Positions 1,983 through 56,233 of a DNA stretch of 64,000 bases are shown piece by piece. Source of the stretch: Chiloscyllium plagiosum. Taxonomy: Eukaryota. The position numbers and the translations under genes were made by a program. Under the pieces are notes generated by a model. The model was not told where the DNA came from and searched no databases. It worked only from the letters and a program-made list of their open reading frames with translations. How positions within the stretch are numbered: the first letter of the stretch is position 1; each line of letters begins with the position of its first letter. Where the stretch lies: assembly GCF_004010195.1 (NCBI RefSeq), contig NC_057718.1, forward strand, positions 55,901,862 through 55,965,861, read 5' to 3'.

Positions 1983-3141
1983 GCAAAGTTTGTGAAGGTT
2001 TGTAGCTCAGGTTGAGGTTTAGGGTGTAGGTTTGCTCGCTGAGCTGTAGGTTTGATATCCAGACATTTCATTACCTGGCTAGGTAACATCAGTGGCGACC
2101 TCCAAGTGAAGCGAAGGATCTTAGTAGACTGGCTGTCATTTCTGAAACTTCTTTGGTGTATGGTAAGGTGGTTAGGGTTTCTGGCTGTGTTTGATCTGCT
2201 TATTGTGGTTTGTTCTTGAGGAATCTGCGCACTGTATTTTTTGAGTATCCATTCTTCTTGAATACGTTGTATAGGTGGTTCTCCTCTGTTTTCCAAAGTT
2301 CATCTGTGCTGCAGTTTGTGGTGGCTCGTTGGAATAGTGTTCTCATACAGCTTTGTTTGTGTGTGTTGGGATGGTTGCTGGTGTAGTTAAGTATTTGGTC
2401 AGTGTTTGTCAGTTTTCTGTAGTTCTTCATTGTCCTTTCTTTCGACTGTGATGTCCAGGAATGCGAGTCTCAAGAACAAACCACGACAAGCAGACCAAAC
2501 ACAGCCAGAAACCCTAATCACCTTACCATACATCAAAAAAGTTTCAGAAATGACAGCCAGACTACTAAGACCCCTCGGAATCCTAGTAGCACACAAACCC
2601 ACCAACACTCTCAGACAAAGACTAACAAACTTAAAAGACCCAGTACAACCCATGGACAAAACCAACGGCTTCTCCAAAATTCCATGCAAGGACTGCCACA
2701 AACACTATATAGGACAAACAGGAAGAAAGTTAGCCACCAGGATACACGAACACCAGCTAGCCACAAAAATACATGATCCTCTCTCCCTCGTAGCCCTACA
2801 CACAGATGAAAAAAAACACCATTTCGACTGGGGTAACACATCTATCCTGGGACTGGCTAAGCAAAGACATGCCAGAGAATTCCTAGAGGCCTGGCACTCC
2901 AACCACAATGCCATAAACAAACATATAGATCTAGATACCATCTATTAACCCCTTAGAAAACGAACAGGAAATGACATCACCACAAACCCCAGGAACCCCA
3001 TCCAGGACAAACATATAAATAGAAAGCAGGAGACAACAGCTTCGCTTCACTTGGAGGTCGCCACTGATGATGTTACCTAGCCAGGTAATGAAATGTCTGG
3101 ATATCAAACCTACAGCTCAGCGAGCAAACCTACACCCTAAA
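1983..3141 (+). mobile_element. Penelope-like element (Poseidon type), 5'-truncated, with inverted 5' segment and GIY-YIG endonuclease
   Basis: ORF 2406..2948 has IPCKDC-HYIGQTGRKLATRIHEH. About 2010-2116 is the reverse complement of about 3038-3140. 12-bp TSD GCAGGTAGTTAT at 1971-1982 and 3142-3153. Confidence 0.9.
3061..3100 (+). ncRNA. Minimal type I hammerhead ribozyme motif in a PLE terminal repeat (slightly decayed)
   Basis: CCA-CTGATGA-t-GTTACC-tagcca-GGTAAT-GAAA-tGTC-TGG, with helix I CCA/TGG. Confidence 0.7.
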
Positions 3142-3329: not shown

Positions 3330-4362
3330 CATCTGCTCAATCCAGGCCTCTCAATATTTTGTGTTTCAATTAGATCTCTCCTTTTCCTTCTAAACTCCAA
3401 GTACTGAACCACCCTGAAACCGCTTCTCATATGACAAGCTTTTCATCCCTGGAATTATTCTCATAAACCTCTCTGTACCCCCTCCAACAACAGTACATCC
3501 TTCCTTAGATATAGATCCCAAAACTGCATGTAATACTCCACGTGCGGTCTGACCAGAGCCTTATACATCCTCAGCAGTATCCTTCTGTTCAATATTACAT
3601 TTGCCCTCCTAACTGTGAACTGAACCTGCATGTCAATCTTAAGAGAATCCTGAACTCGGCATCCCAAGTCCCTTTGTGCTTCAGATTTCTGTAGCCTTTC
3701 CCATTTAGAGAATGAGAGAAAGTGAGGACTGCAGATGCTAGAGAGTCAGAGTCAAAAAGCGTGGTGCTGGAAAATCACAGCAGGTCAGGCAGCATCCGAG
3801 GAGCAGGAGAGTTGACATTTTAGGCATAAACCCTTCATTAGGAATGCTTCATCATGCCTGACCTGCTGTGCTTTTCCAGCACCACATGTTTTGGCCCATT
3901 TAGAAAATAGTCTATGCCTCTGTTCTTCCTACCAAAGTGTATAACCTCACATTTTCCCACATTGTATTCCATCTGCCACTTCCTTGTCCACTCTCCAAGC
4001 CTGTCCAAGTCCTCTGCAGCATACCTGCTACCTCAGCACTTCCTGCCCTCCACCTATCTTTATGTCATCTGCAAACCTAGCAACAATTCCCTCAGTTCCT
4101 TCAGCCAGTCATTAAAGTATAACATGAATAGTTACATAGCCTTGTGGAACTCCACTAGTTACCAGCTGCCATCCAAAAAAATACCTGTTTATCCTCTGCC
4201 TTCAGTCAGTCAGTCAATCCTTTAACCATGCCAGTACCTTGCCCCTAATCTATGAGTTCTTATCTTGTTTAGCAGCCTCCTGTGTAGAACCTTGTCAAAG
4301 GCCTTCTGGAAATACAAATAGATCGCATCCACTAACTTTTCTTTGTCTAATTTGCTTGTTCC
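3330..4362 (-). mobile_element. CR1 LINE 3' RT fragment, interrupted by a PLE-derived short element
   Basis: ORF 3461..3667 has LRMYKALVRPHVEY...LEGVQR, typical of the CR1 ORF2 C-terminus. Confidence 0.85.
3714..3894 (-). mobile_element. Short Neptune-type PLE terminal-repeat insertion (family A, decayed hammerhead)
   Basis: aaagtgaggactgcagatgct...cagcaggtcaggcagcatccgaggagcagg. TSD CCCATTTAGA(G/A)AAT at 3700-3713 and 3895-3908. Confidence 0.75.
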
Positions 4363-5524
4363 AAGGACAAGCAGAGAAAATTTTGAACAATGCATATTGT
4401 GTAAAGAGAGCTTACGGAAGTATCGTATATTTTGATATTTGGTATAGAATTAAGAGCTTTACTCATGATTAATACAATATCTGGAAATTCTGAAATTAAA
4501 GTGTTCTTCAATGAAATAGATTTAAGTAGTCTTGAAATAAATTTGTAGTTGGTAATTAGGAAGTAATAATTCTTTGTTTCACTTTGCTGCTTAAATGAAT
4601 TGACAGTTTTTTTAGTGAAAAATCTTTAAGGTCAGTTACTAAACAACTCTTTTGCTGTGATGTGATTAAAGATATACTGATTTGAATTTTTTTCCATTGT
4701 TGCATTTGCAACATTTGAATTCTATTCAAAGAACATCCTTCAAATCAAATCTATCTATTCTATTGCTCTAAACGTTTTGTTTGATGTTTTGAATAGTATA
4801 GTAGTATGCGAAAACACTGTAGTTGTTAACTCCGTTACTGAATGCTTTGAATACGAAGTGTCGGTAAAATTAATAGATTTCTATGTTCAAGTATCTCTAG
4901 GCTGCTGCTTCTGCTGTAAATAAATCAGCATTTAAATTAGTCTGCTGACCATGTTTTGACAAATATTATTTCAACTAGTAAACTGCCTGACTACAACTCT
5001 CTGATATCTGTAATATAAAAATGCTGCACAGTAATAAAAAGTGATGGATTTATATCGAAGTAGATGATCAACATGAATTTGTTTCTCCTCATGATTAAGT
5101 CTAAACCATACTTGATTTCAAATAACAAAAATCCACCATTTCATTTCACACAAATCAAGAATTTCAAGTGTTAAGCTACATCAGCGTAACACATTCAAGA
5201 TAGTATCAATGTCATCAGACTGTCTTGTAACGTGGCAAAGCACACTGATTAAAATGTTGGTGTCCGACTCCTTGCTACAGATTTAATTATTACCAGCATT
5301 AGCTAACAGTAGACTTAAGCTATCTTGCCTACTGAATAAGATTATACAAATTTGAATAAAGTAAATAAAATGACACAAATGTCTTCCTCACCTGTTTAGC
5401 AAATTTTCTACCTGAAAACAGATCTCTTAATAGATTCAGTCATTGTGCAATTACTTTAAAAATTTGAACATTTGCTAAGAAACACTTAATATTGTATTAT
5501 GTTTTAACTTGCTTTCCTTTGGAG

Positions 5525-5539
5525 GCAGGGAATTGTCAA
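5525..5539 (+). CDS. EML6: Candidate 15-nt alternative microexon GCAGGGAATTGTCAA, (R)QGIV(K)
   Basis: ttgctttcctttggag|...|gtaagt. It preserves frame in the phase-2 intron and resembles the recalled EML5 insert RQGVVRGSR. Confidence 0.75.
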
Positions 5540-5949
5540 GTAAGTATTATGTGTATATTTAATTATAAATATAATTTTATAATTCTATATTATATTAATA
5601 TAAAAACATTGTCACTGTATATTATATTGTGCATTCTGGTTTTGACATTTTGACACAATAAAATATCTTTGAGTTTTCTTAAAATATAGTGTATTGTATT
5701 GTTATCATTAAAGGGATTGAAAATACTTCAAAAGATATTTGAACTTCCATTGAGAGCTGAAAAAATACACAAGATTTCATACTCTAAAATTTTGTAAAAC
5801 AACTGACTGAAAGTGCTATTGATTGCATACTATTTTATTTTGTGTAGGCAACTTTTATTTTGAACTACAGAAAAGAACATTCCTCTAGACTTACTACATA
5901 TTACACCATGGAATGACAATTCTCATAACTTGTTCCCAGCATCCAAAGG

Positions 5950-6972: not shown

Positions 6973-8042
6973 AGAGAAAGTAAAAATGAGGTGCAAAATG
7001 ATACTGACAGTGCACTGGTGCTGACTGCTTTAGCTATGTTAGTTTATGGAGGCCTGCCTTCTTGCCTTGCTCTATACTTGCAGAATTGTACTCACTCAAA
7101 TTAAGCATTACCAATTGTCTCTCCATAATGGAGAGTTGGCTGTATGATGTTTTGTGAACTGTAGCTAATTATTTAGAATCAGATATAATACATTGCAAAA
7201 TTTCTCCAGATTAATACTTCCCTATAATTCATCCAGTCTTCAACCACTTGGTTACAGCCCTAGTAACTTGCTATTACTTTCTAATTTATCAATATTTAGA
7301 GATTAATCTATGAATACCATGTTTGGTAATTATCCAGAAAAACCTGTAAGAAAATTCTTGTAAGGTATACAAACATTCTTTCATAGTTTGAAAGATGAAA
7401 AATTACAACATATGTTAATTTAATTTTACCTTACCTACATTAAGTAATGTATGGTAAAATTAAGTTGAGAAATACTGCATAGTTCTTCATCTTTCAGACT
7501 ATGAAAAAATTTTTGGATATAGAGTCATAGAGATGTACAGCACAGAACAAGAATTTTCATACAGGATTTTTTTGGATAGGTTCCCTAAGGAATAGTTACT
7601 TTGATTAAATATACTAATTACACCAGCAGCTGCCAGTTACTTTCTTCTATGATTCTATTATTTAATAATTTAGTATTATTCACCTTTTCATTTCAGAAAT
7701 TGCAAGTGCAGTAAGTATTATTGAGTACTGATTATTGAGGGTTACATGAACCCAGTGCTCATAGGAAGCATTGACATAGCTTCCTCTTTGTTTCCTCCTT
7801 ATTTTATAGGAGCTTAGTGCAGAATTTTCCCAGTGATATCAGGGTATGGGTTTTCTGAATTTGTAGACTGGTACAATCTGATTTTTGGTTTTATTTGCTG
7901 GCATGATTGAGAAGCATGGTTTGTGCAATACAGGAATGTTGGTTGAAACTGATGAAAATGCTTGTGCATGTGTTCAGTTATTTTACATAATTTTCCTAAT
8001 TATACTAATTCTTTTCACTTAAATTTATTTGCTGCTGTCAAG

Positions 8043-8051
8043 GGGATCCAG
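8043..8051 (+). CDS. EML6: Candidate 9-nt alternative microexon GGGATCCAG, adding GS(R)
   Basis: tactaat branch-like site near 8003, tttgctgctgtcaag acceptor, CAG|gtacat donor. In frame; completes QGIVK-GSR. Confidence 0.7.
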
Positions 8052-10329: not shown

Positions 10330-10408
10330 ACCACCAGTCAGCAGAGCCACTCCTCAACCAGAGAAACTACAAAAGAATAATCTTAACAAGAAGAAAAAAT
10401 TGGTGGAG
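10330..10408 (+). CDS. EML6: EML6-like coding exon (79 nt): (R)PPVSRATPQPEKLQKNNLNKKKKLVE
   Basis: tttgcag acceptor and GAG|gtaacc donor. Phase 2 in matches the previous exon; phase 0 out. Confidence 0.92.
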
Positions 10409-36082: not shown

Positions 36083-37269
36083 AAGTTTGTGAGAAGATTT
36101 GTAGCTTGGGTGCACGTTGCTGTGGTTCTGTTCGCCGAGCTGGAAGTTTTTGTTGCAAACTTTTCGTCCCCTGTATGGTGACATCCTCAGTGCTTGGGAG
36201 CCTCCTGTGAAGCGCTTCTGTGGTTTTTCCTCCGGCATTTATAGTGGCCTGTCCCTGCCGCTTCTGGTTGTCAGTTTCAGCCATCCGCTGTAGTGGCCGG
36301 TATATTGGGTCCAGGTCTATGTGTTTGTTGATGGAGTTTGTGGATGAGTGCCAAGCTTCTAGGAATTCCCTGGCTGTTCTTTGTTTCGCTTGCCCTATAA
36401 TGGTAGTGTTGTCCCAATCAAATTCATGTCTGCATGTGTCTGCGTGTGTGGCTACTAGGGATAGCTGGTCGTGTCATTTCGTGGCGAGTTGATGTTCGTG
36501 GATGCGGATCGTTAGCTGTCTTCCTGTTTGTCCTATATACACCAGAACTGCAAAAAGAGGAAGAGGAACACCTATACAAGGTATTCGCAAAAAACGATAT
36601 CCTCGCAATTTCATCAACAGATGCCTAAGAGAAAGACAACGGAACGAGGACATGCCGCAACCCAAAGGACTAGCCACACTACCATACATCAGGAGCATTT
36701 CAGAACTGACAGCCAGACTACTGCGACCACTAAGACTTATAACATCACACAAACCAACAGCCACTCTCAGACAACAACTCACCAGAACGAAGGACCCGAT
36801 ACCCACATTAGCATAACTAATGTAGTGTACAAAATCCCATGCAAGGACTGCACAAAACACGATATAGGAAGACAGCTAACTATCCGCATCCACGAACATC
36901 AACTAGCCACGAAACAACACGGCCAGCTATCCCTAGTAGCCACACACGCAGACGAGAAGCAACATGAATTTGACTGGGACAACACTACCATTATAGGGCA
37001 AGCGAAACAAAGAACAGCCAGGGAATTCCTAGAAGCTTGGCACTCATCCACAAACTCCATCAACAAACACATAGACCTGGACCCAATATACCGGTCACTA
37101 CAGCGGACGGCTGAAACTGATAACCGGAAGCGGCAGGGACAGGCCACTATAAATCCCGGAGGAAACACCACTGAAGCGCTTCACAGGAGGCTCCCAAGCA
37201 CTGAGGATGTCACCTAGGCAGGGGACGAAACATTTGCAACAAAAACTTCCAGCTCGGCGAACAGAACCA
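36083..37269 (+). mobile_element. Penelope-like element (Poseidon type) with inverted 5' copy of its 3' region
   Basis: GIY-YIG NVVYKIPCKDC...IRIHEH. About 36110-36535 is the inverse of about 36860-37268. 13-bp TSD TTGCAACAGTTAA at 36070-36082 and 37270-37282. Confidence 0.92.
37198..37238 (+). ncRNA. Decayed hammerhead motif in a PLE terminal repeat
   Basis: GCA-CTGAGGA-t-GTCACC-taggca-GGGGAC-GAAA-catt-TGC. Confidence 0.6.
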
Positions 37270-47178: not shown

Positions 47179-47308
47179 GAAATTGCCTTAGAACATGTGT
47201 TTGGATACAGAGGCTTTGACTGCCGCAACAACCTTCATTATCTCAATGATGGGACTGATATTGTTTTTCACACAGCTGCTGCTGGCATTGTTCAGAACCT
47301 GTCATCAG
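47179..47308 (+). CDS. EML6: EML6-like coding exon (130 nt), HELP motif: EIALEHVFGYRGFDCRNNLHYLNDGTDIVFHTAAAGIVQNLSS(G)
   Basis: tttttctttcag acceptor and CAG|gtaata donor. VFGYRGxDCRNNL is the EMAP HELP signature; lies inside ORF 46966..47319. Confidence 0.95.
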
Positions 47309-56212: not shown

Positions 56213-56233
56213 GTGATATTGCAGATACATCAG
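56213..56233 (+). CDS. EML6: Candidate 21-nt alternative microexon GTGATATTGCAGATACATCAG, (G)DIADTS(G)
   Basis: tttgcacttgctgtctcaatgcag acceptor and consensus CAG|gtaagt donor. Phase 1/1 and frame preserving; resembles recalled EML5 GDSADMSA at the same position. Confidence 0.8.

Follow-up and report, generated by a model that had tools for sequence, protein, structure and literature searches.

A conserved 15-nt microexon in the inter-TAPE linker of EML6 from Chiloscyllium plagiosum and its probable neuronal, SRRM3/4-driven inclusion

The window, i.e., the whole 64-kb stretch of Chiloscyllium plagiosum DNA that was analysed, contains the 3' part of the EML6 gene (Table 1). Its coding exons best match the models of this species, with 43/43 and 70/70 identical residues (68/70 for C. 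punctatum), and its identity as EML6 is given by 41 residues out of 41 shared with the protein P0002. In the tree, EML5 falls into one clade and EML6 into another (support 0.999 and 0.884, respectively). A phase-2 intron of 9.6 kb, located between the upstream and downstream exons of Table 1, hosts the 15-nt exon considered here, and joining of the latter to the 9-nt exon of the same intron yields the insert QGIVKGSR. The four possible joinings (skip, 15, 9 and 15+9) are all in frame and free of stops.

Table 1. Coordinates of the EML6 exons, microexons and splice signals of the window (minus values count upstream from the exon).
Feature	Position	Strand	Basis
Upstream EML6 exon; phase 2 end, split Arg codon	566-692	+	43/43 residues identical to P0002/P0106
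24-nt microexon candidate (SFFSEKSL-R); UGC at -22 and -19	4607-4630	+	Best intron match to skate peptide P0125/P0126; AG/GT borders, in frame
Conserved 3' intron element: branch-point-like A (5507), UGC (5510-5512), pyrimidine tract	5492-5521	+	Identity to L002 and L003
In-frame acceptor, GAG triplet (rare)	5522-5524	+	Sequence; needed for QGIVK
15-nt EML6 microexon; adds QGIVK, residues 1334-1338 of P0002	5525-5539	+	In RefSeq XP_043551898.1
Rival CAG acceptor (the Gln codon), 4 nt downstream of GAG	5526-5528	+	Models P0103, P0110, P0130
Donor GTAAGT	5540-5545	+	Sequence
9-nt microexon, adds GSR; AAG acceptor, UGC at -13 and -10	8043-8051	+	Alone in C. plagiosum X2 (P0109)
Downstream EML6 exon, basic half of the linker	10330-10408	+	
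Exon with third HELP motif; premature stop site of the 11-nt form	47179-47308	+	Pfam HELP, E 4e-15
Separate 21-nt microexon (DIADTSG), third TAPE unit, phase 1; UGC at -22, -16 and -5	56213-56233	+	Exact peptide in Hemiscyllium and catshark models

On the acceptor side of the 15-nt exon, a UGC starts at -15, three bases past a branch-point-like A at -18; a second such A stands at -36, both being motif matches. Pyrimidines occupy 13 of 17 positions in a tract that adjoins the AG, and the AG-free zone extends over 43 nt. The donor is the full consensus GTAAGT on the intron side, with an A at exon position -1. The original prediction had placed here an in-frame 15-nt exon of a phase-2 intron, with a GTAAGT donor and a UGC close upstream of the 3' splice site; its coordinates and frame were borne out, and the UGC is present. 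The proposed insert QGIV was right in sequence and too short: because the next exon completes the last codon, five residues (QGIVK) are added and not four.

The window was then screened for an AG followed by 3-27 nt in frame and a GTRAGT donor, which gave 9 candidates on the plus strand and 14 on the minus strand. Among these 23, a UGC together with at least 12 pyrimidines was found only at the 15-nt exon. Being restricted to phase 2 and to GTRAGT donors, the screen does not list the other three EML6 microexons. As 27% of the window's 4379 AGs have a UGC within 25 nt, this motif is by itself weak evidence for an exon, and the strong evidence comes from the conservation seen in the sequences described below. 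Tandem-repeat and repeat scans gave no match at the site of the exon.

The same gene, exon and peptide are found in RefSeq isoform X1 of C. plagiosum (XP_043551898.1, P0002), the top match for the upstream exon, which includes the 15- and 9-nt exons and reads QGIVKGSR. Isoform X2 (P0109) has the 9-nt exon alone (GSR) and X3 (P0106) skips both; these predicted (XP_) models differ only at the 15/9-nt site. RefSeq bases such isoforms on RNA alignments. The expected alternative use of an EML6 exon is thus reflected in inclusion and skip isoforms of the RefSeq predicted models. The expectation that the exon was hidden and would be missed by gene predictors does not hold for C. plagiosum, since X1 has it, although the exon is missing from single-isoform models of several other sharks (P0104, P0105, P0111). 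Seventeen sequencing runs were listed as matching the upstream exon, with no RNA run among those listed.

The EML6 15-nt exon is therefore already known in annotation, and uncharacterised in the literature searched. Within that search, which reached few subscription journals, no paper was found describing EML5/EML6 microexons or linking EML6 to SRRM4, and VastDB may well list the exons. EML5/6 exon entries were absent from the searched supplements of PMC10250204, PMC12868881, PMC13281805 (rows listed), PMC12064062 and PMC12626424, and the 12 of 19 supplementary files of PMC7935315 that were searched contained a single EML5 expression row and no exon entry. The gain for annotation is small because RefSeq already has the exon.

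Conservation of the insert was assessed in 504 proteins, of which 314 were parsed as EML6-like, 146 as EML5-like and 44 remained unparsed; P0369, first sorted as EML5, is placed in EML6 by the tree. Counted as models and not as independent events, and with two of the three protein searches having used insert-bearing queries, the EML6-like set comprises 194 skip forms, 30 with QGIVKGSR directly, 24 with QGIVK alone and 5 with GSR alone. QGIVK is exact in 63 of 64 EML6 carriers, from chimaera to baboon; four of the twelve positions preceding it take 3-5 residues (55 EML6 carriers). In these alignments, the constancy of the peptide reveals selection at the protein level. Carriers were found in chimaera, rays, sharks, bichir, many teleosts, lungfish, frogs, newt, lizards, crow, tenrec and Old World monkeys. 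Hence, the idea of a shark exon was too narrow, as QGIVKGSR-type models also occur in teleosts, lungfish, frogs, lizards, crow, tenrec and Old World monkeys.

A counterpart exists in EML5, where 38 of the 146 models read QGVVRGSR, 12 QGVVR, 8 QGIVRGSR and 5 GSR, and 69 skip. The EML5 microexons (e.g., those of human XP_016876553.1) resemble those of EML6 in position, lengths and isoform combinations, but carry R for the K of EML6 and usually V for I, and the 146 EML5-like proteins include neither a frameshifted form nor a counterpart of the 24-nt candidate. The EML5 peptide RQGVVRGSR, cited in the original prediction, is real and belongs to human EML5 isoform X7 (XP_016876553.1, P0669). The simplest reading would be that both the 15-nt and the 9-nt exon predate the EML5/EML6 split. 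The insert is absent from all 13 oyster orthologues that have the linker, and the named matches (10 of 150 listed representatives plus earlier matches) included no protein recognised as coming from lamprey, hagfish or amphioxus. The origin of the exon can thus be placed no more closely than between oysters and jawed vertebrates. What is preserved is a five-residue insert that stays unchanged across jawed vertebrates and is present in each member of a paralogous pair about which little is understood.

Could the exon have been copied among models by alignment to EML5 and never be spliced? The splicing evidence is indeed second-hand, from predicted (XP_) models, some of which have forced fills at the site (P0021, P0257, P0351, and the lemur model P0050, whose YGVVRGSR resembles intron read-through). 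We nevertheless consider such an artefact highly improbable: EML6 models have K where EML5 has R, in agreement with the window DNA, separate 15-only, 9-only and 15+9 isoforms recur across many species, and the exon, its donor and the 30 bases upstream recur in two other genomes.

These genomes were reached through a motif scan whose pattern fixed GAG, most exon bases and GTRAG, and which returned four loci. Two of these (L001 and L004) were rejected as chance matches, with a GC content of 62%, an upstream identity of 4/30 and near-identity to each other. For the remaining two (L002 and L003), the pattern-fixed bases were left out of the evidence, and the free positions were the upstream 30 nt, the choice of the CAG codon and the sixth donor base; because the pattern fixed GAG, its conservation is unproven by the scan. 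Immediately ahead of the acceptor, L002 agrees with the window at 24/30 positions and L003 at 30/30, the best of the other 4378 window AGs reaching 18 and 20, respectively. The window, L002 and L003 all have a branch-point-like A at -18 and a UGC at -15, and the downstream introns of the two loci are unrelated to the window (22/60 and 18/60). Conservation, one of the grounds on which the original prediction proposed to judge the exon, is found in QGIVK of 63/64 carriers and in the upstream 30 nt of L002 and L003. Judging from these comparisons, the 15-nt exon is almost certainly real.

The exon contains a second potential acceptor, the CAG of its own Gln codon, which the original prediction had overlooked. 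Use of this site would generate an 11-nt exon (5529-5539) and a frameshift, with a stop 10 nt into the exon 47179-47308, i.e., 120 nt before the end of that exon and with further exons downstream. By the 50-nt rule, such a stop predicts nonsense-mediated decay, and the 11-nt message is therefore predicted to be degraded. The frameshifted peptide appears in models of catshark (P0103 and P0110) and bichir (P0130), from which the rival site seems to be used; the same reading is found in the Amia model P0021, and the 11-nt form is in none of the three C. plagiosum models. According to the available parts of PMC2018619 and PMC3095350, acceptors are preferred in the order CAG > TAG > AAG > GAG, GAG being the least used.

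The element could then have been kept as a two-way switch, with GAG giving the in-frame insert and the stronger CAG an 11-nt poison exon that would set EML6 dosage via nonsense-mediated decay. This explanation, which we regard as quite improbable, would account for the frameshifted models and for the position of the stop ahead of further exons, and CAG generally outcompetes GAG (PMC2018619, available part); yet full frameshifted models number just 3 versus 63 in-frame, the invariant peptide argues for selection on the protein, and leakage to a nearby AG requires no function. The Gln codon is CAG in 3/3 DNA loci where the pattern also allowed CAA, but three loci are too few to prove selection for CAG over CAA. 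A broader version would be an ancient dual-outcome exon, kept throughout jawed vertebrates, in which the weakest acceptor, GAG, serves the insert and the stronger CAG a poison exon. A neural factor would then determine which EML6 isoform is made as well as how much of it, and the 24-, 15- and 9-nt exons would form a combinatorial code in the basic linker. We hold this version to be improbable; if it were true, the linker with its 24/15/9-nt cluster might provide the contact with the microtubule lattice that is still missing for EML5/6. The EML6 exon also offers a natural test case of how the spliceosome chooses GAG over a CAG 4 nt away.

Besides the 15-nt exon, the window contains three further EML6 microexons, including the 24-nt candidate upstream in the same intron, which the original prediction had likewise overlooked. 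Skate and catshark models have eight more residues ahead of QGIVK, and the catshark peptide (P0113/P0114) is related to the product of the 24-nt candidate. The window DNA offers the 24- and 21-nt exons, and both are absent from the three C. plagiosum models listed (X1-X3). All four microexons have a UGC within -23 to -5, and the upstream constitutive exon has none; the downstream constitutive exon (10330-10408) also has one, at -5. The peptide of the 24-nt candidate is fast-diverging, with bamboo shark, skate and catshark all different, and was seen in elasmobranch models only. Seven-residue inserts related to the 21-nt exon range from chimaera to mammals, and their sequence varies far more. 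In P0102 (Hemiscyllium EML6) and in P0278 plus four more models (Hypanus EML5), the 9-nt exon is extended upstream via another acceptor; the additional residues are encoded in the window at about 8029-8042, with no AG directly before.

Concerning regulation, the 15-nt exon is probably mainly neuronal and driven by SRRM3/4 via the conserved UGC. In the available part of 10.1101/2024.09.17.613571, the branch point and the AG are separated by a stretch with a UGC in 74-79% of SRRM3/4 microexons, and the regulation of these microexons is shared by sharks and mammals. The EML6 exon shares with these microexons (same source and PMC12626424) the 3-27 nt size, the keeping of the frame, the UGC position, the GTAAGT donor and the shark-mammal conservation, but differs by its close branch-point-like A, its GAG acceptor and the rival CAG. 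SRRM3/4 exons are also described there as having the branch point and tract set farther from a weak 3' splice site. The weak GAG and the AG-free zone of the EML6 exon fit this architecture, whereas a branch-point-like A just 18 nt from the AG fits it less well, and the pyrimidine tract adjoins the AG. In the proposed mechanism, the weak GAG would make skipping the default, and binding of an activator to the UGC would permit the exon to be included, either by itself or together with the 9-nt exon; splicing to the rival CAG would yield the frameshifted EML6 message, with predicted decay.

Published data bear on this in several ways. EML5 expression is mainly in the nervous system (PMC9037033, available part), and Eml6 is differentially spliced in mouse trigeminal ganglia, the exon being unnamed in the available part of PMC8535871. 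EML5/EML6 are absent from 708 zebrafish neural exons (PMC12626424, supplement 1), a list that demands coverage in five tissues and has no eml gene at all, hence no positive control, and from 314 SRRM4-induced exons of cell lines (PMC7935315, file 7); both absences weigh little because of the coverage filters. The available main text of 10.1101/2024.09.17.613571 does not mention EML, and no RBFOX site was found in the 200 nt downstream of the 15-nt exon.

A rather unlikely alternative is that the exon, real and alternative, belongs to another tissue (testis, ovary, retina or endocrine cells) or to other factors, the UGC being merely part of the pyrimidine tract. Testis has high levels of EML5, and oocyte meiosis involves EML6 (PMC9037033, available part); a UGC lies near 27% of the window AGs, the branch point is near the AG, and EML5/6 are missing from the two neural/SRRM4 lists, though coverage filters stand behind both. 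Against such a reading, the UGC is kept at exactly -15 in three loci with otherwise divergent flanks, and is present at all four EML6 microexons.

In the protein, the insert corresponds to residues 1334-1341 of P0002, within the linker (1265-1367) that joins the second and third TAPE units and precedes the third HELP motif. The first half of this linker is acidic (net -12, 1265-1304) and the second basic (net +8, 1335-1364). AlphaFold2, run on the lynx EML6 skip form with a 29-sequence alignment, gave a pLDDT below 50 over residues 445-533, i.e., the whole linker with the insertion site at 509, and the linker is thus predicted to be disordered. The search for solved structures gave none of EML5/6, and the closest one is that of EML1 (4CI8).

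According to the available part of 10.1101/466979, a basic stretch that precedes the TAPE domain is what EML1 and EML4 use to bind tubulin tails, and the microtubule binding of EML5/6 is stated as unclear. The EML6 linker likewise has a basic, unstructured stretch just before a HELP/TAPE unit, but its first half is acidic, and EML5/6 are without the N-terminal trimerisation domain. Where the basic half begins, the 15-nt exon and the 9-nt exon contribute one positive charge each, which might, as the most speculative step of the mechanism, tune the binding of microtubules or partners. The insert offers a direct handle on the question of microtubule binding by EML5/6, including the way in which it could work when the N-terminal domain of EML1-4 is missing (10.1101/466979, available part).

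Several additional observations concern the distribution of the exons and the surrounding introns. In the teleost eml6 duplicates, the microexon peptide occurs in 0/59 models of one copy (support 0.93) and in 29/72 of the other, which suggests that both exons were lost in one copy after the teleost genome duplication, the models not being independent. Frog and caecilian EML6 models (P0242, P0317, P0320, P0321, P0325, P0326, P0330, P0340) have, before QGIVK, one more exon in this intron, which encodes about 36 residues. In the lemur model P0050, YGVVRGSR replaces QGIVK, and the intron start in mammal-like read-through proteins reads YGVAR; this insert may come either from an alternative donor or from a modelling fill. 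Odd inserts of single models (P0050, P0077, P0257, P0333, P0351, P0206, P0161, P0163) were put aside as likely modelling fills, and two QGLVK matches because they are located in a propeller and not in the linker. Inverted repeats were found at 2018-3141 and 3753-3893 in the same intron as the 15-nt exon, with arms of 109, 74, 39 and 30 nt that are 90-100% complementary; they are probably transposon copies, and base pairing between them could occur in the pre-mRNA ahead of the microexon cluster. Finally, the basic-linker exon is followed by a 36.8-kb intron (10409-47178), which contains a stop-free stretch of 233 codons on the plus strand (36516-37214).
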